In this document: positions 13,879 through 30,626 of the stretch, in pieces
How positions within the stretch are numbered: position 1 is the first letter of the stretch
Layout of the letters: the number at the start of each line of letters is the position of its first letter
Source: Patescibacteria group bacterium
GTDB lineage: Bacteria; Patescibacteriota; UBA1384; JBAYJO01
Reading direction: 5' to 3'
Assembly (NCBI GenBank): GCA_041665085.1
Contig: JBAYJO010000003.1
Span: 2,131 to 66,130 of the forward strand
Length of the DNA stretch: 64,000 nucleotides
Notes under the pieces: generated by a model
What the model was told of the DNA's origin: nothing
The model's input: only the letters and a program-made list of their open reading frames with translations
The model's database searches: none
Made by a program: the position numbers and the translations under genes

Positions 13879-15093
13879 CTAGAATTTGAGGGTTGGGTGG
13901 GTGATTGTGATAATCTCCGGTTTAGGAGAGCTTTTCCTGTTCTTAGGAGGTCGTATCTTGTCGTTCGGAGAAGTTCCAATTGCATCCCGATCCAGTATCT
14001 GATGCTGTCTGATCTTAGTATCCTGTATTGAGACTAAGCGTGCTCCTTTCTTGGAAACTGTGATATTTCGGAAGTTGTTGGTTGCGTATTCTCTGTAGGA
14101 CATGCCATTATACATGGATCCAAGATCAAGTGTGGGATGAGGTACTGCTAGATCATAACACATTGAACCTCGAGAATGGTTCTCTTTGTTGGGCGGAACA
14201 TGGCATTGACAAAGTTCATAGCTTGGGCAAACCAAAGCGCAGTGCCTTTCGGCTGCTAAAGCGCTTGTTTTGGGTCGCCATTGACAGAGTCCGTTTCCAA
14301 TATGCCATGCACCTTGGTTGGAGTCGTAGCAGGACAATCCTGCATTATGGCAAGCAAGCGATAGATCTTCCGATAAGTCTTCGCTTATACCGTCTCTTTT
14401 GTCATAAGTGAAGCTTTTGATCATACCAAATTGGTAGACCAACCTCATGATCCAGATATCCACACAATAGAACGGTATTTGACGGAAGAATTCCCACTCC
14501 CTATCGTTGCCTTTCCATTGGATATCTTGAAGCCAGAGCAAGATTAGTTGAGCGATCTTGTGCTTCATCCCAACAGGTTTATCACGATGCTTGCCAGCGA
14601 GCGTCATTACCTTGATCAATCGGTCTCTGTTTTCCATCGGACTCTGATCAAGATTGAGATTCCGAAGAATCAAAATCCTAGGATCACCATCGTATTTCTC
14701 AAGGAGCTTAAGAGTGTTTCGCCACCAGTTGATTCTCTTTGGATCAGTGTGAGCAAAGGGAATGATTGGGGTTAGAATTCTCCGCAGCTCGTCTTGATAA
14801 CTCTCTGCCAGTCCAGTTGCAGGATTGAGTACTTCAGGGTGATCCAGACATACTGTGCTGCATTGGCTGATAGCTTTTTCAGCTGTTTTGCCAGATCTGT
14901 TGTTCCAGCCGACAAAGAAGAGATACATGGCATGCATTAGGCTGCCATATTCTATTTCTTTGGGTTGATGGCGAATTTCCGGGGGGTGCATATTGGCAAA
15001 ACCATAAGTACGGTTTTCCCATGCATCTGCCCAGCTTTTGCATACAACTGCTGCAGTATCGCAGTCAAACTCGTACTTTTTGATTCTGGCCAC
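13879..15093 (-). CDS. Hypothetical Cys-rich protein of the GC-rich island. There is a possible HhH-like 'FYCVDIWIMRLVYQFGMI' segment. Function unknown.
   Basis: Long ORF at ~48% GC. Likely GTG start at 15093, which lies 9 nt after GAAAGGAGG; the track gives TTG at 15129. Antisense ORFs over it are composition artefacts. Confidence 0.55.
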   Translation of the reverse strand: MARIKKYEFDCDTAAVVCKSWADAWENRTYGFANMHPPEIRHQPKEIEYGSLMHAMYLFFVGWNNRSGKTAEKAISQCSTVCLDHPEVLNPATGLAESYQDELRRILTPIIPFAHTDPKRINWWRNTLKLLEKYDGDPRILILRNLNLDQSPMENRDRLIKVMTLAGKHRDKPVGMKHKIAQLILLWLQDIQWKGNDREWEFFRQIPFYCVDIWIMRLVYQFGMIKSFTYDKRDGISEDLSEDLSLACHNAGLSCYDSNQGAWHIGNGLCQWRPKTSALAAERHCALVCPSYELCQCHVPPNKENHSRGSMCYDLAVPHPTLDLGSMYNGMSYREYATNNFRNITVSKKGARLVSIQDTKIRQHQILDRDAIGTSPNDKIRPPKNRKSSPKPEIITITHPTLKF

Positions 15094-15213
15094 TTGTGGC
15101 ACCCTCCTTTCAGATTGATCAGAATTCAAAAGAGAGCGTTCCTTGCTCCCTCATTTTCAATATAGATTATTTGTAAAAATAAGGCAAATGCAAAGGGGCA
15201 GCTATATTTCAAG

Positions 15214-16518
15214 CTACCCCGAGTTAGTCTGGCCTGTGCCAGCCAATACTGCTGGTTGTGATTCTTCAGCAGTCAGTTCGTCGATAGCGTCAAGTAGACG
15301 CCGAGTTTGTCGAGTCAGTCGTTTGACTTTCTTAGGATCAAGACTGATCAGGTGTCGCGCGAGTTTGGCTAGATGTGGTAGACCAATTCCCTCGAGACTA
15401 TTGATTACCATTTGGACTTGGCCAAGACATGAGTCAAGATGATCTAGTACTTTACCAAGTCTCTTACGGTTTTCAGGGTCGGTCATAGGTGAATCAGCTG
15501 TTGATAATAGGTGTTGTTCGCAGAGCCACTTCATTCCTTCGAATGTTAGTATAATGCCCTGCAAGCCATCGCCTGTCAAGCTCTTGATAGCATTGCGAAA
15601 TGCCTTTTCAGTATCAGCTTGGACAGAATAATCCATTGCTGCAGCTAAGTCCATTTGGACTAGACTGGCGATTCTTTCAGTGATGCGTCTGCGGTACTTT
15701 GGAATCGACAATCGTGGCCCTTGGCTTATGACATAACGCAATTCAGTTTCTAGCGTTTTTTCGCCGAACTTATGATCTGCCAATCGAGCCATCTCTATGG
15801 CAAAACCATACTTCATCTTGCTGTTTTCAACAGCTTTGCGCAAACGATCCGGCAAGCCGCAGAACTTGATCATGCGACTGACTTTGTTAGGGGAGCAACC
15901 AAGTTCTTTGGCCAATTTGGCATACGAGAATTGCGCATCTCTCTTGCGGTACATCTTAAGCATTGATTCGACAAAGTATGCCTCCTCATGTGCCGGTACT
16001 GTACCGTGGATGTTTTCGGAGACTTGAATGCATCTGGCGTAGAAAGGATCAGGATTGACATAGATGTCGCACCACCTGATTGCGCTTTTTGGAAACTGTA
16101 TCTCAAAGCAGTGGCATTCAGATGATTCTTCTCCATCAACCTTGCAACGCGAGCATCCTTTTTCACGGAGTTCGATCATTGCTCGAATTCTACATTCTCC
16201 TGCGATCAAGACATAGTATTTGCCTTTTCGCGCGTAGGATTTGTAGTCATCAAACTCGAGGGTTGCTCCATGAAGGTCTGCCGAGAAAAGCAAATACTCG
16301 ATGAACTTTGCTTTGCTGGTAAAAACAGCCAGCTTAATGTTGGTCAAAAGTCCCATTCGGCCGATATTCTCAGCCAAGTCAGTGATCTTGAGGGGATCAA
16401 AGGTGTGCCTTTCCTGTGGTAAGATAATCACATCTTCGATCGGGATTTCTCGACTTCGCATGAGCGATTCGAACTGTAGTCTCTCAACAACATTGTTTTC
16501 TGGTCCAGACTTTGTCAT
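15214..16518 (-). CDS. ParB/Srx-like nuclease-domain protein with an HTH domain.
   Basis: 'YVLIAGECRIRAM' resembles the ParB 'LIAGERRxRA' box. HTH 'SYAKLAKELGCSPNKVSRMIKF'. ATG at 16518 is preceded by AAAGGGGGTGA. GC ~50%. Confidence 0.65.
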   Translation of the reverse strand: MTKSGPENNVVERLQFESLMRSREIPIEDVIILPQERHTFDPLKITDLAENIGRMGLLTNIKLAVFTSKAKFIEYLLFSADLHGATLEFDDYKSYARKGKYYVLIAGECRIRAMIELREKGCSRCKVDGEESSECHCFEIQFPKSAIRWCDIYVNPDPFYARCIQVSENIHGTVPAHEEAYFVESMLKMYRKRDAQFSYAKLAKELGCSPNKVSRMIKFCGLPDRLRKAVENSKMKYGFAIEMARLADHKFGEKTLETELRYVISQGPRLSIPKYRRRITERIASLVQMDLAAAMDYSVQADTEKAFRNAIKSLTGDGLQGIILTFEGMKWLCEQHLLSTADSPMTDPENRKRLGKVLDHLDSCLGQVQMVINSLEGIGLPHLAKLARHLISLDPKKVKRLTRQTRRLLDAIDELTAEESQPAVLAGTGQTNSG

Positions 16519-16609
16519 TTCATCACCCCCTTTTGTCCAGACTAATTTAATCATTAAAATAAATACGAGACTTGTCAAATGGTACATGTTAATAAATATG
16601 TGGAAAAGT

Positions 16610-16648
16610 ATATATTAAAAAGGTTAAGGCAGGCGCAAGCGCCTGCCT
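16610..16648 (-). terminator. Rho-independent terminator downstream of purA (minus strand).
   Basis: Perfect hairpin 'aggcaggcgc aa gcgcctgcct', followed on the minus strand by TTAACCTTTTTAATATA. Confidence 0.7.
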
Positions 16649-16680
16649 AATAAGTCAATATTCAGTTTTGGGTCAATCCG

Positions 16681-17952
16681 CTATTTGCGGAGGATGATCT
16701 TGTCTCGATGAGCACCGTTGGTCACGATGACGATCGGAACTCCGAGAAGCTGCTCGATGTGATCGATGTAGCTGCGTGCTGCTTCGGGAAGTTCATCCAT
16801 GCTTGTTGCTCCTGTGATGTCTTCCTTCCAGCCGGGTAATGTCTCGTATTCTGGTTCGACTTTGCCTAGCAGATCCGTGGTCGGGTAGCTGGCAAGGATC
16901 GAATCCCGGTACTTGTAAGCGATGCAGATCTTGATCTCATCAAGCTGACTCAAGATATCAAGCTTGGTCATGATGAGACTGGTGAATCCGCCAACCATCA
17001 TAGCGTACTTGAGCGCTACGATATCGAGCCATCCGCATCTTCGTTTCCTGCCGGTAGTAGCGCCGTACTCGTTGCCAGATGTTCGGAGTTGTTCGCCGAT
17101 CTGGTCTCGCAATTCGGTGGGAAAAGGACCAGCACCAACAGCAGTGGTGTATGCTTTCATAACTCCGTAGATCTCGATGATTTCGAGCGGTGAAATTCCG
17201 GCTCCTGCAATAATACCAGCAGGGCTAGGGCAGGAGCTGGTAACGAATGGATAGGCACCTTCATTGAGATCCCGCATAAGGCCAAGTTGTCCTTCGAGCA
17301 AGATCTGCTTGCTGCCAGATACTGCAGTGTGGATCAGCTCAATTGGATTCATGACATGTGGAGCAATGAATCGACATGCTCCTTCAATCTCATCCATGAT
17401 CTGACTCAAGCTAAGCCCACTGTGACCATAGAGCGAGAGTCGATCATTGATCCATTCAAGTTCTTGGCTTATGTGGTTGCTAAATTGCCCAAGGTCAAGG
17501 ACCTCCTCGACTCGGAATCCGCTCCTGTTTGCCTTGTCGGCATAGCACCACGCAATGCCTTGATGGGTCGATCCAATCTCTTTGCCATTGCCCATGCGCC
17601 GCTTTTCATCTAGCATGTCGAAAAGGACGTGATAGGGCATGACGAGATGGGCAAGTGGGGAAATGATGAGCTTGCTGGTGTTGATTCCTACTTTCTGCAA
17701 CTCTCTGATTTCAGTTTCAACACCAACCGGATTGACGACGCAACCATTTCCGATGATGCAGGTGGTCTCGGGGTTGAATATCCCAGATGGGATAGCATGC
17801 AATTTGAAGACTCGGCCGTCGCGTTCAACAGTGTGGCCGGCATTGGCTCCACCTTGACCACGAATAACCATATCAGCTTCAGTGGCAAGATAATCAACCA
17901 CTTTGCCTTTGCCTTCATCTCCCCATTGTGTTCCGGCTACGATATCGACCAT
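16681..17952 (-). CDS. purA: Adenylosuccinate synthetase.
   Basis: 'VAGTQWGDEGKGK', 'GGANAGHTV', 'GTTGRKRRCGWLD' canonical motifs. Start at the internal 'MVDIVAG…'; the track ORF extends 25 codons upstream. GC ~52%, atypical for this window. Confidence 0.9.
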   Translation of the reverse strand: MVDIVAGTQWGDEGKGKVVDYLATEADMVIRGQGGANAGHTVERDGRVFKLHAIPSGIFNPETTCIIGNGCVVNPVGVETEIRELQKVGINTSKLIISPLAHLVMPYHVLFDMLDEKRRMGNGKEIGSTHQGIAWCYADKANRSGFRVEEVLDLGQFSNHISQELEWINDRLSLYGHSGLSLSQIMDEIEGACRFIAPHVMNPIELIHTAVSGSKQILLEGQLGLMRDLNEGAYPFVTSSCPSPAGIIAGAGISPLEIIEIYGVMKAYTTAVGAGPFPTELRDQIGEQLRTSGNEYGATTGRKRRCGWLDIVALKYAMMVGGFTSLIMTKLDILSQLDEIKICIAYKYRDSILASYPTTDLLGKVEPEYETLPGWKEDITGATSMDELPEAARSYIDHIEQLLGVPIVIVTNGAHRDKIILRK

Positions 17953-18087
17953 AGTAGAATTATCCTCTCTTGTGAAGTAGTGTAAGGCAATCGGTTGCTT
18001 ATCTTCACAACCATAAGAATAGTACAATTTAATAAATAAAAAATCAATCTATTTTAAAAAATATTTTAGAACTGTGTCAATTATTGT

Positions 18088-20303: not shown

Positions 20304-21080
20304 ATGGAAGAAAAATTTAAAAGGTTAAAAACCTTGAATGCGTGGGCGTGTTTGCTTCATTTGGTCTCGGGAATATTAATGGTAGCGTTATCAACTAACC
20401 TAGAAGTGCCTATTACGGCCTCTTTTTTGCATTTTGACAGATTTAGTCAGACTCTGGTTCCGCAGATGGAAACATTATTTTCAATTAAACTTGGACTACT
20501 TGTAGCATCATTTTTGTTTATGTCTTCAATCGCTCATTTTTTAATTGCTTTTCCACTTAATAGTTGGTACAACAAAAACCTTAAGAATAATATAAATATT
20601 GCAAGATGGATTGAATATGCTTTTTCGTCATCTGTTATGATGGTTGTTATTTCATTTTTAGTTGGTATGAGCGATATTGCAACTTTAATTGTAATATTTT
20701 TTCTAAATGCAATGATGATACTTTTTGGATGGATGATGGAGCTTCATAACCAAACCCTTCGACAGTGTTCGGAACAGGCCGAAAAGGTAAACTGGACAGC
20801 ATACATTTTTGGTTGTATTGCTGGAATTGGTCCATGGATTGCTGTTGCGATATATTTAGCAAGTCCGGGAGTAGCTGATAATCCACCAACTTTTGTGTAT
20901 TGGATTTTCTTTTCAATTTTTATTTTCTTTAACATTTTTGCTGTAAACCAGATACTTCAATATAAAAAATTCGGTAAATGGAATGATTATCTTTATGGAG
21001 AAAAAGTATATATTATTTTAAGTTTTGTGGCAAAATCGCTTCTTGCGTGGCAAGTTTTTGCTGGTACACTAAGACCATAG
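20304..21080 (+). CDS. Heliorhodopsin (7-TM retinal protein, inverted topology).
   Basis: Full-length similarity to characterised heliorhodopsin 48C12: 'RWIEYAFSSSVM', 'FGWMMELHN', 'FGCIAGIGPWIAV', 'KFGKWNDYLYGEKVYIILSFVAKSLLAWQVFAGTL'. TM7 has the Schiff-base Lys in 'SFVAKS' and TM3 the counterion Glu in 'WIEY'. Confidence 0.9.
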   Translation: MEEKFKRLKTLNAWACLLHLVSGILMVALSTNLEVPITASFLHFDRFSQTLVPQMETLFSIKLGLLVASFLFMSSIAHFLIAFPLNSWYNKNLKNNINIARWIEYAFSSSVMMVVISFLVGMSDIATLIVIFFLNAMMILFGWMMELHNQTLRQCSEQAEKVNWTAYIFGCIAGIGPWIAVAIYLASPGVADNPPTFVYWIFFSIFIFFNIFAVNQILQYKKFGKWNDYLYGEKVYIILSFVAKSLLAWQVFAGTLRP

Positions 21081-21085
21081 GAAGT

Positions 21086-21454
21086 ATGAAAAAGATAAAC
21101 AAAAATTTAATTGCTTCGTGTGGAATGAACTGCGGAGTTTGTAGAGCATATTTGCGAGAGAAAAATAAATGTCCGGGCTGCCAAAAAGGTCCGACTATGA
21201 TTTCGTGCCAGCGTTGCAAACTTATGAACTGTCCTGATAGAAAGGGTGAATTTTGTTTTGAATGTGAGAAATTTCCATGTGATAGGCTTAATCATTTAGA
21301 TAAACGATATCGCGAAAAATACGGCATGAGTGAAATTGAAAATCTTGAAAATATTAGAGATAATGGGATTGATGAATTTATGAAAAGCCAGCGAAAAAAA
21401 TACCAATCAGAAAAAGGAACTTTTTGCGTGCATGATAAAAAATATTATAAATAA
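21086..21454 (+). CDS. Cys-rich DUF3795-family protein, translationally coupled to heliorhodopsin.
   Basis: CGMNCGVC…CPGCQ…CQRC…CPDR…CFEC…C pattern. ATG is 5 nt after the heliorhodopsin stop, preceded by AGGAAG. Confidence 0.65.
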   Translation: MKKINKNLIASCGMNCGVCRAYLREKNKCPGCQKGPTMISCQRCKLMNCPDRKGEFCFECEKFPCDRLNHLDKRYREKYGMSEIENLENIRDNGIDEFMKSQRKKYQSEKGTFCVHDKKYYK

Positions 21455-21466
21455 AAAGGAGAAAAA

Positions 21467-21790
21467 ATGGATCATAATAATATTACTACAGCACTCGAAT
21501 TGCCAGATTTAAAAATTGAAAAAAATTTAGGTGTTGTAAAAGGGATTACTGTTAGATCAAGATCATTATTTGGAACTATTGGAGCAGCATTTCAGACACT
21601 AGCAGGTGGAAATATTTCACTTTTAACAACACTTTGTGAAAAAACTCGAGCCGAAGCTTATGAATTAATGATTAAGCACGCAGAAGAAATTGGGGCAAAT
21701 GCTGTTGTGGCGGTAAAATATGACGCTACTGAAGTGATGAGTGGCGTGACTGAAGTATTGTGCTACGGCACTGCCGTTGTGGTGAAATAA
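21467..21790 (+). CDS. YbjQ/UPF0145 (DUF74) family protein.
   Basis: 107 aa, 'GVVKGITVRSRSLFGTIGAAFQTLAGG…ANAVVAVKYD' typical of YbjQ. Confidence 0.7.
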   Translation: MDHNNITTALELPDLKIEKNLGVVKGITVRSRSLFGTIGAAFQTLAGGNISLLTTLCEKTRAEAYELMIKHAEEIGANAVVAVKYDATEVMSGVTEVLCYGTAVVVK

Positions 21791-21802: not shown

Positions 21803-22597
21803 TTGATGATGAATCTTGTAGACAAGATAATTTTGGTTACGGGTGCTGGAAGCGGCATTGGCAGAGAGCTTACTTTGTCTTTATTAAAAAAAGGTACAAA
21901 AGTTATAGCTGTTGATATTGATAATGAATCTTTAGAAGAAACTAAAAAACTGGCAGGGTTAAATAGTGAAAATATTACAACTCAAATTATAAATATCGCC
22001 GATAAAAAAGCAGTTGAAAATTTGCCCGAAAAGATCAAAAATATTGATGGTATTGTTAATAATGCTGGAATAATTCAACCTTTTGTCAAAATAAATGATC
22101 TTGATTATGAATCAATTGAAAGAGTTATGAATATTAATTTTTACGGTACACTTTATATGACCAAGGCGTTTTTGCCACTTTTATTAAAACGTCCAGAAGC
22201 GTATATTGTAAATATTTCCAGTATGGGAGGATTTTTGCCAGTGCCTGGTCAAAGCATTTATGGCGCATCAAAAGCGGCAGTAAAACTTATGACAGAGGGA
22301 TTGTATGCGGAGTTGGCGGACACTAATGTTCATGTTACGGTTGTTTTTCCGGGAGCTACTAAAACAAATATTACTGTAAATTCTGGTTTAGATCAGCCAA
22401 AAGGCGGTTCGGAAAATAATTTTCCAATGTTGCCGGCGAAAAACGCAGCAAATTTAATTGTTAAAGGTATTGAAAACAATAAATTTCAAGTATTTTTGGG
22501 TAAAGACTGCAAATCAATGAACTTTTTATACCGTCTGAATCCTCGCTTTGCCACCAATTTTATTGCCAAGCAAATGCGTTCTTTGTTGACCAAATAA
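21803..22597 (+). CDS. Short-chain dehydrogenase/reductase (SDR).
   Basis: 'VTGAGSGIGRE' Rossmann motif, 'NNAG', catalytic 'YGASKAA'. Confidence 0.85.
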   Translation: MMMNLVDKIILVTGAGSGIGRELTLSLLKKGTKVIAVDIDNESLEETKKLAGLNSENITTQIINIADKKAVENLPEKIKNIDGIVNNAGIIQPFVKINDLDYESIERVMNINFYGTLYMTKAFLPLLLKRPEAYIVNISSMGGFLPVPGQSIYGASKAAVKLMTEGLYAELADTNVHVTVVFPGATKTNITVNSGLDQPKGGSENNFPMLPAKNAANLIVKGIENNKFQVFLGKDCKSMNFLYRLNPRFATNFIAKQMRSLLTK

Positions 22598-22869: not shown

Positions 22870-23275
22870 AATGTGTACCTCTTTTAGTTCATAAGATGAC
22901 TATCCGATCGACCCTTCGACAAGCTCACCATTCGATCCCGAGCAACTCATGGTCGAGGGATGGCAAGCCGAATTTTAGGATAGTTTTTGGGGCCCTTGAG
23001 TTTTCTCGTTTGGACTCCTTTAATTGCTTCAAGGGTAAAGCAGGAGTATCTAATCCAACGAGTTTATTATAATAAATTCAGGCAAAAAAACAACACCACT
23101 CTTGCTTGTCATTCCTTAATTTTACGCGAAGGAGAAACTTTTCCTTAATATTTTTGGCACTATAATAGAGGTGGTAAATACCATTTACTCTATGAGCTGA
23201 ACGACCTTGAGGTAGACGGCCTATTTGTTCTATAAGATGGAAAGACTGGGCGGAAGAAATAAATATATATTCATA

Positions 23276-23304
23276 TTGACATCAATAATGTATGGGTATA
23301 TATT
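23276..23304 (+). promoter_or_regulatory. Sigma70-type promoter (TTGACA-17-TATATT) upstream of the DUF5320 gene.
   Basis: Exact consensus -35 and a near-consensus -10 with a 17-nt spacer, ~40 nt upstream of the RBS AAAGGAGGTGA. Confidence 0.55.
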
Positions 23305-23346
23305 TATAGTATAAGGTAAAATTATCACCGAAAGGAGGTGAGAAAT

Positions 23347-23586
23347 ATGCCAGGATTTGATCAAACAGGTCCTCAAGGACGAGGTCCAATGACAGGAAGA
23401 GGGTTGGGACCATGCGGGAGAGGTATGGGCTGGGGCAGAGGTTACGGACAAGGTTGTGGGAGATTCGCAGGACGATCCTATCTCTCAAAAAGAGAAGAAG
23501 TGGAAGATTTAGAAGAAGAAGCCAAAGATCTTGAATCAGATCTTAAAGCTTTAAAAGAAAGAATTGCTGAGATCAAGGGAGAATAA
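23347..23586 (+). CDS. DUF5320-family protein (Gly/Arg-rich N-terminus, C-terminal coiled coil).
   Basis: 'MPGFDQTGPQGRGPMTGRGLGPCGRGMGWGRGYG' followed by an acidic coiled coil. ATG after AAAGGAGGTGA. This family typically accompanies NifB/NifX-like and MinD-FeS genes. Confidence 0.7.
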   Translation: MPGFDQTGPQGRGPMTGRGLGPCGRGMGWGRGYGQGCGRFAGRSYLSKREEVEDLEEEAKDLESDLKALKERIAEIKGE

Positions 23587-23686
23587 AAAAGCCGCTCCGG
23601 CGATCCAGTCTTTCTGGACGCTGGGGCGACCCTGCATTTTCAATTTTACTGAAAAATAAATATTTATCAATAAGAGAGGGAGTAAA

Positions 23687-24418
23687 ATGAGATTGGAAAA
23701 TAAAGTAGCGATTGTAACGGGTGCAGCATCCGGTATCGGCAAAGCGATCGCTGAAACATTTATTAAAGAAGGGGCCAAGGTTGTCTATTCCGATATTAAT
23801 GCGCCGGATAATTTTGAAACAACCGACAGAACATTATTTATAAAATGCGATGTTTCAAATTCAAAAGATGTGGATGCGTTGATTGGTGGAACAATCGATC
23901 ATTTTGGTAAAATTGACATTATGGTAAATAATGCCGGAATCGGCGGTTTGGGCGGTATTCTTGATGTTACTGATGAGAATTGGGATAAAACAATCGGGAT
24001 AAATCTTTCCGGCGTGATGTACGGCATGAGAGCAGTAGCCAATAAGATGAAGGAGTCGAACATCAAGGGCGCTATCATTAATATGAGTTCTATCTTGGGA
24101 AGTGTTGGTTTTAATGGAGCTATTGCATACTGCGCGGCAAAAGGCGGAATTGTTCAACTAACGCATGCCGGTTCTCTTGATCTTGCTCAATATAATATTA
24201 GAGTAAACGCAATTGCCCCGGGATTTATCCAAACCAATATGACAAAAGATATTTTGAAAGATGAACAATTTAATCAATTAGTAACCGGATCAACACCGCT
24301 GGGGCATGTTGGTGAGCCAGATGACATTGCCAATGCTGCTGTTTATTTGGCATCAGACGAGGCCAAATATGTCACAGGTAACATTTTATATGTTGACGGT
24401 GGGTGGACAGCTAAATAG
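23687..24418 (+). CDS. SDR-family oxidoreductase (FabG-like 3-oxoacyl-ACP reductase type).
   Basis: 'VTGAASGIGKA', 'NNAGI', 'YCAAKGG', 'YVTGNILYVDGGWTA'. Confidence 0.85.
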   Translation: MRLENKVAIVTGAASGIGKAIAETFIKEGAKVVYSDINAPDNFETTDRTLFIKCDVSNSKDVDALIGGTIDHFGKIDIMVNNAGIGGLGGILDVTDENWDKTIGINLSGVMYGMRAVANKMKESNIKGAIINMSSILGSVGFNGAIAYCAAKGGIVQLTHAGSLDLAQYNIRVNAIAPGFIQTNMTKDILKDEQFNQLVTGSTPLGHVGEPDDIANAAVYLASDEAKYVTGNILYVDGGWTAK

Positions 24419-24428
24419 AAAGGAAGAA

Positions 24429-24767
24429 ATGAAAATAGCAATCGGAATAAAAGACAAAGAGAGCAAAGAAATAAATGAGATGTTTGCTAGATCTTCGTAT
24501 TTTTTATTTATAGAAGTTGAAAATAAAGAAATTGTCAATGAAAAAATTGAAGAAAATACATTTACCGATCAAATGAGCGGCGCTGGGATTGCCGTAATTG
24601 AACATTTGGCAAAAAAGGAAGTCGAGACAATAATTTGCGCTAATCTTGGACCACGTGCGCTTGATCTTTGTAAACAACTTCAAATTAAAGCCTACAAAAC
24701 AAATGATTCTACCTATGAAAAAACTATAGAATTATTTTTGAAAAATGATTTAGTTGAGATCAAATAA
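24429..24767 (+). CDS. NifX/NifB-C-terminal-like (dinitrogenase FeMo-cofactor-binding fold) protein.
   Basis: 112 aa, 'MKIAIGIKDK…MFARSSYFLFIEV…GAGIAVIEHLAKKEVETIICANLGPRALDL'. Start placed after RBS AGGAAG; the track ORF runs on from the upstream gene. Confidence 0.7.
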   Translation: MKIAIGIKDKESKEINEMFARSSYFLFIEVENKEIVNEKIEENTFTDQMSGAGIAVIEHLAKKEVETIICANLGPRALDLCKQLQIKAYKTNDSTYEKTIELFLKNDLVEIK

Positions 24768-24768
24768 T

Positions 24769-25116
24769 ATGAAAATAGCAATACCAACAAACGACAAAAA
24801 AACTGTTGCAGACCATTTTGGACGTTGCCAAACATACTTGTGTTTTGACGAAAAAGGCAATAGTTTGGCCGAGATTAACAATACTTCCGAGCATATGGGC
24901 GGACAAGGATTGCCTCCGGAATTACTAAAAAATAACGGTGTGGATGTTCTTTTGTGCAAAGATTTAGGACCCTACGCTATCTCACTTTGCAGTGAAAATA
25001 ACATAAAGGTTTACAAACATTCTGAAGCAGAATTGATAAATAGCCTTTTTAATTTATGGCAGTCTAATAAATTAAAAGAAATCGCTATCGGTGAAGGCTG
25101 TGAAAGCCATCAATAA
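24769..25116 (+). CDS. NifX/NifB-like FeMo-co-binding-fold protein (second paralog).
   Basis: 'MKIAIPTNDKKTVADHFGRCQTYLCFD…GVDVLLCKDLGPYAISL', with the characteristic HFG motif. Confidence 0.7.
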   Translation: MKIAIPTNDKKTVADHFGRCQTYLCFDEKGNSLAEINNTSEHMGGQGLPPELLKNNGVDVLLCKDLGPYAISLCSENNIKVYKHSEAELINSLFNLWQSNKLKEIAIGEGCESHQ

Positions 25117-25125
25117 GGAGAAAAT

Positions 25126-25995
25126 ATGAAAATTGCAGTCGCCGGAGGAAAAGGTGGAACCGGAAAATCTACTATCGCGACAATAATTGCGGCAGAATTG
25201 GGCGTAAAAGCAAAAACTATGCTCATTGATTGCGATGTAGAATGTCCCAATGATCATTTGCTTTTGAATACTAAGCTTAAATTCTATAAAGATGTTTTTC
25301 AAGTTATTCCTAAATGGGATCAAGACATCTGCAACAAATGTGGCAAATGCGCTGAAATTTGTAAACAAGATGCTATAATTTTTGTCGAAGGCAAATTTCC
25401 CGCGTTTTTAGCGGAAAGATGCATTGGTTGTAAGGCATGCTTAGCTGCCTGTCCGCTCCATGCAATAAGCACTGATCAAAGGCCTGTTGGAAAAATTTAC
25501 CTGTCGGATAGCAAAAAATATAATATTACTTTAGTCACCGGAGAGTTAAATATTGGAGATTTGGCTTCCGGAGAAATTGTAGCCGAATTACGAAAAGAGT
25601 CAAAAAAAATTAATCTTGATAAAAAATGCGAGCATATTGTTACTGATGCGGCCGCCGGAATCGGTTGTCCTGTTATCGCTTCAATATTGAACAATGATTA
25701 TATGATCGCGGTTACCGAGCCAACTCCTTCTGCTTTTAGCGACTTAAAGAGAGTAATCAGCTTGGCAACTCATTTTAATATTCCCATTGGAATTGTAATA
25801 AATAAGTATGATATAAATGAAAAATTTATTAAGGAAATTGAAAAATTTGCCGATTGCTATAAAATTAAAATAGTCGGAAAAATCCCTTACGATAAAAATC
25901 TGATAAAATTAAATGTGGAAGGAAAAATAAGCGACAAGAGCAAATATAAAGAAATTATTAAAAAATTATTAAGCAATATTGAAGAAACCATATGA
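25126..25995 (+). CDS. MinD/ParA-superfamily P-loop ATPase with a 2x[4Fe-4S] ferredoxin insert (CooC/Mrp-like).
   Basis: 'AGGKGGTGKST' deviant Walker A and two CxxCxxCxxxCP motifs (CNKCGKCAEIC, CIGCKACLAACP). Confidence 0.8.
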   Translation: MKIAVAGGKGGTGKSTIATIIAAELGVKAKTMLIDCDVECPNDHLLLNTKLKFYKDVFQVIPKWDQDICNKCGKCAEICKQDAIIFVEGKFPAFLAERCIGCKACLAACPLHAISTDQRPVGKIYLSDSKKYNITLVTGELNIGDLASGEIVAELRKESKKINLDKKCEHIVTDAAAGIGCPVIASILNNDYMIAVTEPTPSAFSDLKRVISLATHFNIPIGIVINKYDINEKFIKEIEKFADCYKIKIVGKIPYDKNLIKLNVEGKISDKSKYKEIIKKLLSNIEETI

Positions 25996-27263
25996 AAATG
26001 AACGCCAAAATAATTTCATTAATCTCAGCCATTACCAATATTATATTGTCGGCGGCAAAATTGATTGCCGGTTTTGCTTTTGGTAGCATTACATTGATTG
26101 CATCAGGTATAGATTCATCCCTAGACATTGTGTCTTCTCTTATAACTTTCTTTGGAATTAAAATCTCTGAAAAACCTGCCGACAAAGAACATCCTTATGG
26201 TCATGCAAGATATGAAAGTTTGGCTAGCTATACCGTAGTAATGCTTATTTTTGCTTCGACGCTTTGGATTATTTATGAAGCTTTCATTGAATTATTCAAA
26301 GGCGGTTACAATGTGCAGTATTCAATAATTTCTATAATAGTAATTATTGCTGCCATAATTATTACAGAAGTGCTAGCACGGCTTAAGTACTACTTTGGCA
26401 ATAAGTTTTCCTCGCTTTCTCTTGTTGCGGACGCACAACATTCAAGAGCCGATGTTCTATCGCAGATTGCCGTTTTAACCGGTCTTTATATAACAAAATA
26501 TTTTTCTGTCGCAGACAATATTTTAGCAATTCTAATTGCTTTTTATGTTCTCTGGAGTACATATAATCTTGCTAAGGAATCGGTTGATTCGCTAGTCGAT
26601 AAGGCAAATAATGAACTTGAAAAAAAGATTGATGATTGGCTTAAAACCAATGATTATCATTTTTCCGATATAAAGACTCGAAAAATAGGATCTCAAAATT
26701 TTGCTGAAATATTCTTAGTATTGGAAAAAAAATTAGAAACAGAAGAAATAACTGAATATCTTCGAAAACTCGAGCATCAGATATTAAACAGTTTTAACGA
26801 ATTGACTCAAGTCACTTTGTCCATTGATTCGCATAATATTTCGGACTCTTCGACCAGAAATTGGCTTGGCGGAAGAATGCATTTTCGATTTGCCAATTCT
26901 AATATGAAAGGCACAGCAATCAGCCCCAAAGAAACAGATGCTTACCGTATTGTAATTCCGTATCAAGATGGCAAAATATCTTCAGATTTTGGTTCTAAAG
27001 AGTACATGCTAATCGACCGTTCCTCTAAAAAAGAAGGGTTTAAGAAAGAAATTACAGCCAATCCTTTTTTTGACAATGGAGAAAATTCAGGTCACGGAGT
27101 TCGTTTTATAAAATCCGTCGATGCGGATGAAATCATTGTTAGATCGATCGGTCACGGAGCATTGAACAATTTAAAGTCACAAAATGTTAAGATTACTATC
27201 CTTAAGAAGGATATTAGTTTAGATGAATTAGAAAGAGAAAAGTATGAAACCGAGAAAATGTAG
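25992..27263 (+). CDS. Cation diffusion facilitator (CDF) transporter fused to a C-terminal NifX-like domain.
   Basis: N-terminal 6-TM CDF core ('HPYGHARYESLAS', 'HSRADVLSQ'). C-terminal ~110 aa 'RIVIPYQDGKISSDFGSKEYMLID…GHGVRFIKSVDADEIIVRSIGHGALNNL' resembles the upstream NifX-like proteins. Confidence 0.7.
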   Translation: MKMNAKIISLISAITNIILSAAKLIAGFAFGSITLIASGIDSSLDIVSSLITFFGIKISEKPADKEHPYGHARYESLASYTVVMLIFASTLWIIYEAFIELFKGGYNVQYSIISIIVIIAAIIITEVLARLKYYFGNKFSSLSLVADAQHSRADVLSQIAVLTGLYITKYFSVADNILAILIAFYVLWSTYNLAKESVDSLVDKANNELEKKIDDWLKTNDYHFSDIKTRKIGSQNFAEIFLVLEKKLETEEITEYLRKLEHQILNSFNELTQVTLSIDSHNISDSSTRNWLGGRMHFRFANSNMKGTAISPKETDAYRIVIPYQDGKISSDFGSKEYMLIDRSSKKEGFKKEITANPFFDNGENSGHGVRFIKSVDADEIIVRSIGHGALNNLKSQNVKITILKKDISLDELEREKYETEKM

Positions 27264-27528
27264 AAAAATCGAATTTGAACCAAGCGTTTTTTATTTTAAA
27301 CCGCAGGGAGTCCCGCTTCGTTTTTTGGATGAGGTTGATCTTTCAGCTGAAGAATTAGAAGCAATGAGGCTAAAAAATATTGAGGATATGGATCAGATCG
27401 AAGCAGCAGAAAAAATGCATACTTCGCAGAGTACCTTCCAACGAATCTTGTCTTCCGCATACAAAAAGATTTCCATTGCCTTGATAGAAGGCAAAGCAAT
27501 AAAAATTCATGAAATTGAGCGTCCATAA
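27244..27528 (+). CDS. DUF134/UPF0251 predicted DNA-binding protein.
   Basis: 'KPRKCRKIEFEPSVFYFKPQGVP…LSAEELEAMRLKNIEDMDQIEAAEKMHTSQSTFQRIL…ALIEGKAIKI' matches the family hallmark. Confidence 0.7.
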   Translation: MKPRKCRKIEFEPSVFYFKPQGVPLRFLDEVDLSAEELEAMRLKNIEDMDQIEAAEKMHTSQSTFQRILSSAYKKISIALIEGKAIKIHEIERP

Positions 27529-27588: not shown

Positions 27589-28354
27589 GGGGACGCTTCA
27601 CTTTCACTCAATGCTTTAGCGATAACTTAAATTTTGGTATAGTATAGTTATGCCACGACAACCAAGATTTCTTCCACCGGACAACTACTATCATATAATG
27701 AACCGCGGTAATAACGGCCAGCAGATTTTTACTTGTGATGAAGATTATCAATATTACCTCGACAAATTATTAGAACTTAAATATGAACATCCATTTAATC
27801 TCTCTCACTATTGTCTGATGCCTACTCATGTTCATTTTTTACTAAAAATAATCAAAGAAACTGATTTTTCCATCTTTTCAAAACGGTTGAACTTAAGTTA
27901 CGCTATTTATTTTAAAAGAAACTATGGCTCTATAGGCCATTTCTGGCAGGGTAGGTTTAAAAGCCAGTTAATAAGCAATGATATCTATCTTATGCAGTGC
28001 GGAAAATATATTGAATTAAATCCAGTCAGAGCAGACATGATAACAATGCCAGAAGACTATTCCTGGTCAAGCTATCAATATTATGCCTTTGGTAAAAAGA
28101 ACAGTTTGATTACCGAAGATATTTTTTACAATGAATTTGGAAATGATCAAAAAGAAAGGCAAAAAAATTATTCCCAATTTATGATTGATGAGGCTATTGC
28201 GACTACGATGAGTAGTAAGAAGCTAGCTATCGGAGCTAAAGATTTCGTGTATAATATAAATAGAAAAAATAAATACCACTTAGAAAATAAAGATGCTTCC
28301 TACCATTCAAAAAATACTTATCGCTAAAGTATTGAGTGAAAGTGAAGCGTCCCC
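27589..28354 (+). mobile_element. REP-associated tyrosine transposase (RAYT)/IS200-like element bounded by 33-bp perfect inverted repeats.
   Basis: Left inverted repeat 27589-27621 'ggggacgcttcactttcactcaatgctttagcg' and right inverted repeat 28322-28354 (its exact reverse complement). Short tandem repeats (tagcttt)x3 and (ccccgaaag)x2 lie just outside. Confidence 0.75.
27650..28327 (+). CDS. Y1 HUH tyrosine transposase (RAYT / TnpA-REP family).
   Basis: 'YHIMNRGNNGQQIF…HYCLMPTHVHFLLK…' has the HxH (HVH) motif, and there is a downstream Tyr region ('YSWSSYQYY'). Confidence 0.75.
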   Translation: MPRQPRFLPPDNYYHIMNRGNNGQQIFTCDEDYQYYLDKLLELKYEHPFNLSHYCLMPTHVHFLLKIIKETDFSIFSKRLNLSYAIYFKRNYGSIGHFWQGRFKSQLISNDIYLMQCGKYIELNPVRADMITMPEDYSWSSYQYYAFGKKNSLITEDIFYNEFGNDQKERQKNYSQFMIDEAIATTMSSKKLAIGAKDFVYNINRKNKYHLENKDASYHSKNTYR

Positions 28355-29996: not shown

Positions 29997-30626
29997 ATGA
30001 AATTTTTAATCAAACTTGATCGGTTTTTTGCGTGGGTTCTGTTCGGTGGGATGTTACTTTATTTTGTCTCCGGTTATGGCATGACTAAAGGTATAATTGA
30101 TGTATCTTTTGCAACTAAAATTCATCTCAACTTTTTGACGTACATTATTCTGATGGCTTTCACCTTTCATACTTTTTATGCCATTCACTTGGCTTTTAAA
30201 CGATGGCGAATTTGGGGTGGGCCAGCGAAGGTTTTACTGGTCAGTTTTTTCGTTGCCTTTTTCGGATCTTTCGTCTATATCGATCGATATTATCAAATCT
30301 CTAAGCAAATACCCGTAGAGTCTAGCCCTAGTGAAAGTGTGAGCAACACAAATTCTGAAGCAATAACACTGACAAACTCAAACAGCAATAGTGCTTTGTC
30401 TACCGAAGAGACTTTTACCATCTCACAGCTTTCGAAGTATAATGGCAAAAATGGTCAGAGCGCCTATGTAGCTGTTGACGGTAACATTTATGATCTAACT
30501 TCGGTTTTTAATAATGGTAGTCATTTTTCTCATTATGCCGGAACCGAATTAACTAATGCATTTTACACTCGTCATGCTAAAAGTGCTCTCTCTAAATTTC
30601 CAATTGTGGGAAAATTGGTAAAATAA
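29997..30626 (+). CDS. Membrane protein with a C-terminal cytochrome b5-like heme/steroid-binding (MAPR-type) domain.
   Basis: 4 TM, then 'FTISQLSKYNGKNGQSAYVAVDGNIYDLT…HYAGTELTNAF'. Confidence 0.6.
   Translation: MKFLIKLDRFFAWVLFGGMLLYFVSGYGMTKGIIDVSFATKIHLNFLTYIILMAFTFHTFYAIHLAFKRWRIWGGPAKVLLVSFFVAFFGSFVYIDRYYQISKQIPVESSPSESVSNTNSEAITLTNSNSNSALSTEETFTISQLSKYNGKNGQSAYVAVDGNIYDLTSVFNNGSHFSHYAGTELTNAFYTRHAKSALSKFPIVGKLVK

Follow-up and report, generated by a model that had tools for sequence, protein, structure and literature searches.

A gene cluster in a Patescibacteria group bacterium (assembly GCA_041665085.1, contig JBAYJO010000003.1) raises the question of what its products handle and what controls them. 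The cluster occupies positions 23347 to 27528 of the 64,000-nucleotide stretch that we analyzed (contig positions 2,131 to 66,130, forward strand; hereafter the window, whose own numbering is used throughout), and its seven genes encode a DUF5320 protein, an SDR oxidoreductase, two small NifX-like proteins, an ATPase with an inserted ferredoxin domain, a CDF transporter fused to a further NifX-like domain, and a DUF134 helix-turn-helix (HTH) protein. Domain searches bore out all seven of these calls, which had been made in a first-pass annotation from the sequence alone, and all seven genes lie on the plus strand (Table 1). The acquisition, storage, and disposal of iron and sulfur are poorly understood in strict anaerobes with minimal genomes, and this locus bears on that gap. 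Gene content, transporter clade, operator, hairpin, and domain fusions were read directly from the loci; from them we infer which protein binds the operator, in which direction it acts, what ligand and metal are handled, and how the exporter is gated. The reading that we favor, with moderate confidence, is that the operon senses and handles an inorganic metal–sulfur species, most likely iron–sulfur, under repression by DUF134 and DUF5320, and that a NifX-like domain gates its exporter.

We compared about 165 loci, of which 80 were fetched by similarity to the CDF transporter and 80, from metagenomes, by similarity to DUF134, together with extra contigs. Neighbors in the fetched loci were annotated with phmmer, module genes were counted when they lay within 5 kb of the CDF gene, and the taxonomy of loci from metagenome-assembled genomes (MAGs) is as labeled in their records. 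Among the 37 closest relatives of the window's transporter, which come from bacteria of the candidate phyla radiation (CPR) and archaea of the DPANN group, 25 had a DUF134 gene nearby, 22 a NifX-like gene, 21 the ATPase gene, and 21 a DUF5320 gene. None of the 48 more distant CDF transporters (from Bacillota, Bacteroidota, Acidobacteriota, and others) had any of them. This co-occurrence (21 to 25 of 37 loci versus 0 of 48) and an operator present in 75 of 75 loci strongly back the earlier proposal of one functional module, which may serve metal or metallocofactor trafficking, as was first suggested.

A shared operator and the DUF5320–DUF134 pair

Aligning the DNA 5′ of DUF5320 across loci revealed a palindrome, ATG(G/A)(G/A)TATATA(T/C)TCAT, with the extended form TTATGAATATATATTCATAA. 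Searched for with at most two mismatches within 250 nt upstream of DUF5320, it was found in every one of the 75 loci that had at least 120 nt of upstream sequence, at a median distance of 75 nt from the ATG; across the 1.6 Mb of fetched DNA, 80 sites lay near DUF5320 and 15 elsewhere. Because TTGACA stands 9 to 13 nt 5′ of the palindrome at 63 of 77 sites, the center of the palindrome corresponds to the −10 hexamer. The window carries two copies, one abutting the −35 box and one covering the −10 box, and no further comparable site was found in its 64 kb. The consensus promoter that had been called ahead of the cluster was recovered (Table 1). Promoter-like sites overall were fewer in this region than in shuffled sequence (15 versus 23 expected), and we gave weight to the conserved site only. 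In loci labeled Woesearchaeota, Aenigmatarchaeota, or Pacearchaeota, the palindrome lies 3′ of a B recognition element (BRE)/TATA element (cGAAA...TTTAWATA), often in two copies 23 to 24 nt apart. In bacteria and archaea alike, this placement resembles that of a repressor site. The module occurs together with its operator in episymbionts of both domains, which makes it a clear candidate for the transfer of a complete regulated unit from one domain to the other.

Intergenic DNA outside the promoter and operator was unconserved, even in comparison with relatives of 48 to 69% identity. Rfam searches of the 470-nt upstream gap and the DUF5320–SDR gap returned no riboswitch or other known RNA at gathering score, and only chance-level matches at E ≤ 5. 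The ∼390 nt directly 5′ of the operator (22870–23258) held no convincing open reading frame (ORF), Rfam match, or conservation with relatives and may be decayed sequence. Two archaeal loci carry extra operator-like palindromes 3′ of the ATPase gene (L013 at 5087, ATGAATAGGTATTCAT; L019 at 5768, ATGGATAACTATTCAT), which may mark a second regulated unit.

DUF5320 always came first after the operator in the compared loci. In the window, it follows a strong Shine–Dalgarno sequence at 23332–23340, and the whole protein scored 51 bits against PF17253 (gathering cut-off 27), covering profile positions 1 to 99. Its N-terminal 45 residues comprise 16 Gly, 6 Arg, 5 aromatic residues, and 2 Cys, with a pI of 10.8, and its C-terminal part is an acidic coiled coil. 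The 100-nt gap between DUF5320 and the SDR gene contains a strong hairpin; folding of the 107-nt intergenic stretch gave −35 kcal/mol (z = −4.2), and 60 of 85 loci had a stable hairpin (median z −5.3) within 60 nt after the DUF5320 stop codon. We regard this hairpin as a probable partial terminator or attenuator, and expression of DUF5320 that differs from that of the downstream genes is probably conserved. With such a hairpin conserved behind DUF5320, transcription as one full-length unit is not assured. The tight packing described earlier applies to the genes that follow: from the SDR gene through the ATPase gene the gaps are 10, 1, and 9 nt, and the ATPase/CDF and CDF/DUF134 genes overlap by 4 and 20 nt.

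DUF134, the last gene, scored 74.7 bits against PF02001 (gathering cut-off 27), and a profile of its family matched only HTH domains in the PDB, with a resemblance to those of DeoR/SorC and sigma region 4. The order operator, DUF5320, DUF134 is kept in nearly all of the 80 loci picked by DUF134 similarity alone. What varies is the set of genes between or after the two: a CDF with a Cys-rich tail, NifX-like proteins, the ATPase, ZIP, thioredoxin, YibE_F, a DsbD/SfLAP-like membrane protein, a 388- to 413-residue protein with a glutaredoxin-like N terminus and, once, an SDR. Judged by these gene orders, the minimal conserved unit is operator–DUF5320–DUF134, a putative regulatory pair, with the NifX-like proteins, the ATPase, and the CDF transporter as its cargo.

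A block of thioredoxin, the 388- to 413-residue protein (which has no Pfam match beyond its glutaredoxin-like N terminus), rhodanese, TrmO, YibE_F, the DsbD/SfLAP-like membrane protein, and ZIP genes recurs downstream of the module in L082 (9556–12710), in L084/L085, and in several of L108–L169, which suggests that thiol and sulfur redox functions also fall within the regulon. In L082, the order after DUF134 is thioredoxin, a 388-residue protein, rhodanese, TrmO, and ZIP. Homologs of the thioredoxin, 388-residue, rhodanese, TrmO, YibE_F, and SfLAP/DsbD-like neighbors were absent from the 64-kb window.

Domain fusions tie the two regulators to each other and to the cargo. Used as the query of an exhaustive HMMER search, the DUF134 protein of the window retrieved 2,671 cluster representatives (50% identity) at E ≤ 1e-3; among the best 150 of these, 40 were HTH-only like the window protein, 30 had Cys-rich zinc-ribbon-type tails, and 22 had Gly/Arg-rich tails. 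DUF134::NifX-like fusions were confirmed by Pfam (PF02001 plus PF02579) in 8 of 10 long members checked. DUF134::DUF5320 fusions exceeded the Pfam cut-off in two representatives (P0122, 36.5 bits; P0126, 33.9 bits), and two others (P0127 and P0239) join DUF134 to the DUF5320 N-terminal motif and a Cys-rich motif. The DUF134::DUF5320 fusions are not read-through artifacts, because the order within the fusion reverses the gene order. The modules joined to DUF134 recur on CDF transporters (NifX-like or Cys-rich) and on NifX-like proteins (Gly/Arg tails, Cys-rich), and DUF5320 also exists as a protein of its own. The simplest reading would be that the NifX-like, Cys-rich, and Gly/Arg modules recognize one ligand or one another, with the window holding a split version. 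Fusions that link DUF134 (∼2,700 cluster representatives), DUF5320, and the NifX-like domain, and a precise DNA target in the form of a 16- to 20-bp palindrome with coordinates, make two long-standing domains of unknown function testable as a regulator pair without culture of CPR bacteria.

The transporter clade, the NifX-like proteins, and the ATPase

The window's CDF transporter consists of six transmembrane (TM) helices and a cytosolic C-terminal domain (CTD; residues 1–290), a disordered linker (∼288–309), and a NifX-like domain (residues 317–419; nt 26940–27248). Its TIGR01297 score (Table 1) exceeds the cut-off of 82.35, and it missed the equivalog cut-offs of FieF (145 versus 420), MamB (126 versus 350), and ZitB (63 versus 408), with the FieF, MntE, MamB, and MamM models scoring above ZitB; nor is it a MamM equivalog. 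The AlphaFold model (mean predicted local distance difference test score, 76) has a CTD of alpha-beta-beta-alpha-beta order and a separate alpha/beta domain at residues 317–419. Foldseek matched the transporter part best to YiiP (∼28% identity) and ZnT transporters, and the separate domain to TA1041 (2re2), a solved protein of the PF02579 type. Taken alone, the fusion's C-terminal domain stayed below the PF02579 cut-off (22.5 bits versus 26.3); a profile of 25 homologous domains matched the MTH1175/TM1290/PH0822 structures (1o13, 2yx6, 1eo1) at 1.6e-7 to 3e-6. We relied on this independent PDB profile search; an hhalign comparison with the NifX-like alignment was discounted, since the query was itself a member of that alignment. 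The transport quartet is D41/D45/H150/D154 (DD-HD); among the 37 clade CDFs, 26 have HD-HD and 9, including the window's, have DD-HD. An NCBI protein from a Patescibacteria MAG is identical over 421 residues and starts two residues later, and Patescibacteria have numerous homologs with the CDF-plus-NifX-like layout, among them those of Nealsonbacteria, Portnoybacteria, and Parcubacteria. Full-text searches of the literature found no paper that studies a CDF joined to a NifX-like domain.

In a neighbor-joining tree, the module-linked transporters formed one clade, which among the loci retrieved was confined to CPR and DPANN. It splits into two sub-clades: the first, from CPR and including the window, has the C-terminal NifX-like domain, and the second has in its place a Gly/Arg/Trp stretch followed by a Cys-rich motif, GPxGxCxCPxCGx4Hx2GxPCx4CPxC. 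No Pfam family matched this motif or the small Nealsonbacteria ORFs, and the motif was absent from the 64-kb window.

In the loci that have it, the Cys-rich motif usually follows a Gly/Arg stretch, either as a stand-alone ORF of ∼70 residues or fused to a CDF, DUF134, or NifX-like protein. It was seen at L001 7345–7560 and in L004, L005, L006, L009, L012, and L020, and in fused form at the CDF C termini in L013–L033 and on DUF134 in L013, L015, L016, and L023. A further CDF::NifX-like fusion, archaeal and independent (L088 7387–8565, with NurA, UbiD, and CbiX as contig neighbors), lies outside both the module and the clade, so such fusions arose at least twice.

Both free-standing NifX-like proteins exceed the PF02579 cut-off of 26.3 bits (A, 61.3; B, 52.8). 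NifX-like A belongs to a class with "...FGR..YF / GGAG" motifs; in the window, the motif is degenerate (MFAR) and the protein lacks a tail. Its orthologs in related loci carry cationic Gly/Arg tails, and in L004, L005, L015, L018, and L020 they have the tail and pI of IssA, a protein discussed below. NifX-like B has HFGRC near its N terminus and GCESH (CxxH) at its C terminus; it matched the MrpORP model at 3e-12, far under the cut-off. A true NifX role in nitrogen fixation was considered and rejected: the TIGR02663 equivalog scored 21.6 bits against a cut-off of 112, and no nif gene was among the genes annotated around the module.

The ATPase had been described as CooC/Mrp-like. Its deviant Walker A motif, with the signature lysine of KGG, agrees with that description; its family-model scores do not, since both MinD (TIGR01969, 53.7 versus 201.75) and MrpORP (NF041136, 51.5 versus 450) fell below their cut-offs. 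It belongs to a ferredoxin-insert subgroup without a solved structure. In 27 homologs, the Walker A sequence GGKGGTGKS is invariant (27 of 27), and little or no variation was seen at the eight cluster cysteines or at an additional one, Cys181. The window has one copy of the ATPase and the Nealsonbacteria loci have two.

Metal–sulfur species, zinc, and other candidate ligands

NifB-co and FeMo-co are bound by the PF02579 domains of NifX and NafY, and a Mo-Cu-S cluster by the orange protein. Characterized PF02579 domains all bind clusters of the Fe–S or metal-sulfide type and not a single ion (PMC5524996, PMC6345978). In IssA, a PF02579 domain is combined with a cationic Gly/Trp/Arg tail, and Fe and sulfide are stored as polymeric thioferrate, an anionic polymer which the tail is proposed to bind electrostatically (PMC5524996). 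We lean toward iron–sulfur because of the IssA-like tails in relatives, the chemistry of the DUF5320 N terminus, the Cys/His motifs of NifX-like B, the cluster cysteines of the ATPase, the FieF, MntE, MamB, and MamM scores of the transporter, and the rhodanese and thioredoxin genes in relatives.

On the metal–sulfur reading, dimers of DUF134 would bind both palindromes and, since these abut the −35 box and cover the −10 box, would repress transcription from the promoter. DUF5320, with a cationic Gly/Arg/aromatic N terminus that has a conserved Cys and with its coiled coil, would be the obligate partner of DUF134, and the fusions suggest that the state of the ligand could be passed to DUF134 by DUF5320, the NifX-like proteins, or both. 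Upon induction, DUF5320 would be the first product and in excess; it is probably the most strongly expressed, because the hairpin lets part of the transcription through. Read-through would yield the NifX-like carriers, the Fe–S ATPase, and the CDF transporter. The two NifX-like proteins would serve as cluster carriers or sensors, and the dimer-type ATPase, on the model of the Mrp, NifH, and CooC families, would load or transfer the cluster. The CDF antiporter would export a divalent metal (Fe2+/Zn2+), and its NifX-like domain, on a flexible linker under the cytosolic CTD, could couple efflux to the loading of the store and so act as an overflow valve. ZIP would supply uptake.

Several points weigh against this reading. 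Neither free-standing NifX-like protein of the window has a tail, and both are acidic (pI 5.1 for A and 5.5 for B); the NifX-like domain of the fusion has no cysteine, and how AlphaFold places the domains relative to each other is uncertain (predicted template modeling score, 0.50). The HD-HD and DD-HD quartets do not discriminate Zn from Fe and would fit Zn2+ at least as well as Fe2+, and an importer of the ZIP type and an exporter in one regulon would be odd if both carried the same metal. Conservation of the operator is partly that of the −10 box itself, and many of the loci are related uncultured CPR lineages, which makes the counts given above non-independent. Gly/Arg-rich motifs also bind nucleic acids (PMC7565180). 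In full-text searches of the literature, DUF5320 and DUF134 were uncharacterized, with only a passing mention of RG motifs.

The most serious alternative is a homeostasis operon for zinc (or Co/Ni/Cd), in which DUF134/DUF5320 would be a metalloregulator, the CDF transporter would carry the metal out and ZIP would carry it in, and the NifX-like proteins and the ATPase would be metallochaperones like CooC, HypB, or ZNG1, with no metal–sulfur cluster involved. For the transporter, the HD-HD form of site A in 26 of the 37 clade CDFs and the zinc transporters YiiP and ZnT as best structural matches agree with zinc, but the NCBIfam models rank FieF, MamB, and MamM above ZitB. The surroundings also point both ways: ZIP/ZupT recurs as a neighbor, a gene for a YbjQ "heavy-metal-binding" protein lies upstream, and zinc-ribbon-like Cys-rich motifs occur on CDF and DUF134 proteins, whereas the rhodanese and thioredoxin neighbors indicate sulfur chemistry. 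Against zinc, too, the ATPase has two [4Fe-4S] motifs, and the PF02579 domains characterized so far bind clusters and not a single ion (PMC5524996, PMC6345978). We consider the zinc alternative unlikely.

It is improbable that the Gly/Arg-rich DUF5320 protein and the tails of DUF134, NifX-like, and CDF proteins bind nucleic acids (RGG-type, G-quadruplex, or RNA), with DUF5320/DUF134 as a regulatory pair of general nucleic-acid binders whose link to metal genes is incidental. An RG-type quadruplex-binding motif was noted in Methanosarcina DUF134 and DUF5320 proteins (PMC7565180), but a membrane transporter and cluster-binding domains carry the same tails. DUF5320 gave weak bZIP-like matches (1.6e-3); its glycine-rich segment would be incompatible with a helical bZIP basic region. 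The cargo, moreover, consistently consists of metal, thiol, or sulfur genes.

Molybdenum or tungsten is of little use to CPR genomes. This counts against the alternative that we hold least probable, an ortholog of the Desulfovibrio orange protein (ORP) system that would assemble a Mo/W-Cu-sulfide "orange protein" and have a role in cell division, with the transporter merely adjacent. In domain content the two are alike: Orp3/Orp4 correspond to a MinD-like ATPase that carries two ferredoxin motifs, and Orp8 and the Orp9 C terminus to PF02579 proteins (PMC6345978). The MrpORP model also gave weak matches, but those reach 26 to 52 bits against a cut-off of 450, the locus is without an Mrp/NBP35 gene, a sigma-54 promoter, or OrpR, no orange-protein structure was among the PDB matches of NifX-like A and B at E ≤ 0.01, and the CDF, ZIP, and DUF5320 core lies outside ORP.

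We also put forward, tentatively, a bolder form of the metal–sulfur reading. In this form, DUF134 and DUF5320 would be an unrecognized cross-domain (CPR and DPANN) regulator that senses an inorganic iron-sulfide species through interchangeable NifX-like, Cys-rich, and Gly/Arg modules, the same modules on the CDF would make it the first metal transporter gated by a metal–sulfur cluster, and DUF5320 with the NifX-like proteins would form an IssA-like thioferrate store in ultra-small cells.

Neighboring genes and comparison with known systems

Two members of the neighborhood require comment. The SDR gene had been counted as part of the cluster, and we rejected it as a core member: it is absent in L082, the closest relative with a long contig (69% identity), outside the window only L086 and L168 have such a gene near the module, and the 40 to 48% mutual identity of the SDRs in these three lineages is ordinary for FabG-like SDRs. 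The metal exporter and the ZIP importer, to which the cluster had been linked, are both present as described, but a gene for a Y1 (IS200/REP-associated-type) tyrosine transposase, bordered on both sides by a perfect 24-nt inverted repeat (GGGGACGCTTCACTTTCACTCAAT), stands between DUF134 and ZIP. This element is a mobile insertion outside the module that breaks the DUF134–ZIP junction, and without it the window's ZIP gene would abut DUF134. ZIP lies directly 3′ of DUF134 in L113, L168, and L169, and in or near the module in L029, L082, L084, L086, and L147. A TAGCTT repeat (three copies) lies just 5′ of the transposase element.

Table 1. Features of the operon and its flanks in window coordinates
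Feature	Position	Strand	Evidence or remark
Operator copy 1, ATAAATATATATTCAT	23259..23274		Directly 5′ of the −35 box; 2 mismatches versus the family palindrome
Sigma-70-type promoter, TTGACA (23276–23281), 17 nt, TATATT (23299–23304)	23276..23304	+	11/12 match
Operator copy 2, ATGGGTATATATTTAT	23292..23307		−10 hexamer is its center; matches the palindrome family
DUF5320 protein, 79 aa	23347..23586	+	PF17253, 3.4e-13
Hairpin with 15-bp stem, then U-rich stretch, 3′ of the DUF5320 stop	23593..23628	+	Folding
Classical SDR oxidoreductase, 243 aa	23687..24418	+	adh_short_C2, 1e-70; lineage-specific accessory
NifX-like protein A, 112 aa	24429..24767	+	PF02579, 1e-16
NifX-like protein B, 115 aa	24769..25116	+	PF02579, 5e-14
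MinD/ParA-superfamily ATPase with inserted 2x[4Fe-4S] ferredoxin domain, 289 aa	25126..25995	+	
CDF::NifX-like fusion, 423 aa	25992..27263	+	Cation_efflux, 4e-40; TIGR01297, 201 bits
DUF134 helix-turn-helix protein, 94 aa, HTH only	27244..27528	+	PF02001, 9e-21
Inserted element with Y1 transposase gene (27650–28327)	27589..28354	+	Inverted repeats 27589–27612 and 28331–28354
ZIP/ZupT-like metal importer, 247 aa	28398..29141	+	Recurrent cargo or neighbor of the module

Other genes flank the operon at a greater distance. Upstream, a heliorhodopsin gene (PF18761, 1e-96; 20304–21080, plus strand) is followed by genes for a Cys-rich DUF3795 protein (21047–21454), the YbjQ protein (21467–21790), and a second SDR (21803–22597). 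Further upstream, three adjoining genes of 416 to 457 codons on the minus strand (13879–18027) have a GC content of 45 to 48%, versus 35% for the window; Rfam found no rRNA there, and the stretch may be a horizontally acquired island. Directly 3′ of the ZIP gene and a gene for a 242-residue Ser/Asn/Gln-rich protein, a plus-strand gene (29997–30626) encodes a membrane-anchored protein with a cytochrome b5-like heme/steroid-binding domain.

To our knowledge, non-nitrogenase NifX-like domains have been studied only in IssA and in the ORP complex, neither of which has a settled role in the cell. The locus connects such domains with an exporter in the membrane, with an importer, and with a regulator of their own. 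The description of the module as conserved stands, but "functionally uncharacterised" does not hold for all of it, as its parts are matched in the ORP complex of Desulfovibrio and in iron–sulfur storage by IssA (PMC6345978, PMC5524996).

IssA of Pyrococcus furiosus has the same globular domain (PF02579/IPR003731, MTH1175-like) as the window's NifX-like proteins (PMC5524996). The likeness extends to the Gly/Arg tails on NifX-like proteins of related loci and to the DUF5320 N terminus, which has the same Gly/Arg/aromatic, high-pI character. The window's NifX-like proteins themselves lack the high pI and the Gly/aromatic/Arg tail of IssA, and the cationic element is supplied in trans on a coiled-coil DUF5320 protein. 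No transporter, ATPase, or dedicated regulator has been described for IssA, whereas the module has all three, and binding of thioferrate by its proteins is putative.

The ORP complex of Desulfovibrio vulgaris (Orp3/Orp4, Orp5, Orp8, and Orp9, which is MrpORP) is anaerobe-associated, like the module (PMC6345978, PMC8359166). Both combine a MinD/ParA-type ATPase that has two [4Fe-4S] motifs with several PF02579 proteins, and the Cys/His motif of NifX-like B resembles the CxHFGHCE...CDH of the MrpORP Di-Nase domain (PMC6345978). The differences lie in control and composition. The window has a sigma-70-type promoter and a DUF134-associated palindrome, whereas ORP relies on sigma-54, OrpR, and IHF; the window has one ATPase instead of two and no Mrp/NBP35 protein; and CDF, ZIP, and DUF5320 are not ORP components.

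With the Fe/Zn-group CDFs (YiiP/FieF of E. coli and Shewanella; MamB/MamM), the window's transporter has in common six TM helices and an alpha-beta CTD, and its DD-HD site is that of YiiP. It differs in having an extra NifX-like domain, in sitting in a dedicated operon, and in belonging to a separate clade. NifX, NafY, and the C-terminal domain of NifB share the fold and PF02579 with the window's NifX-like domains, which lie nearer the solved non-nif group of MTH1175, TM1290, and PH0822. The module is of an already known kind, that of ORP- and IssA-type metal–sulfur modules; what is new is the dedicated CDF clade with its sensor-like appendages, the cross-domain operator, and the pairing of DUF5320 with DUF134.

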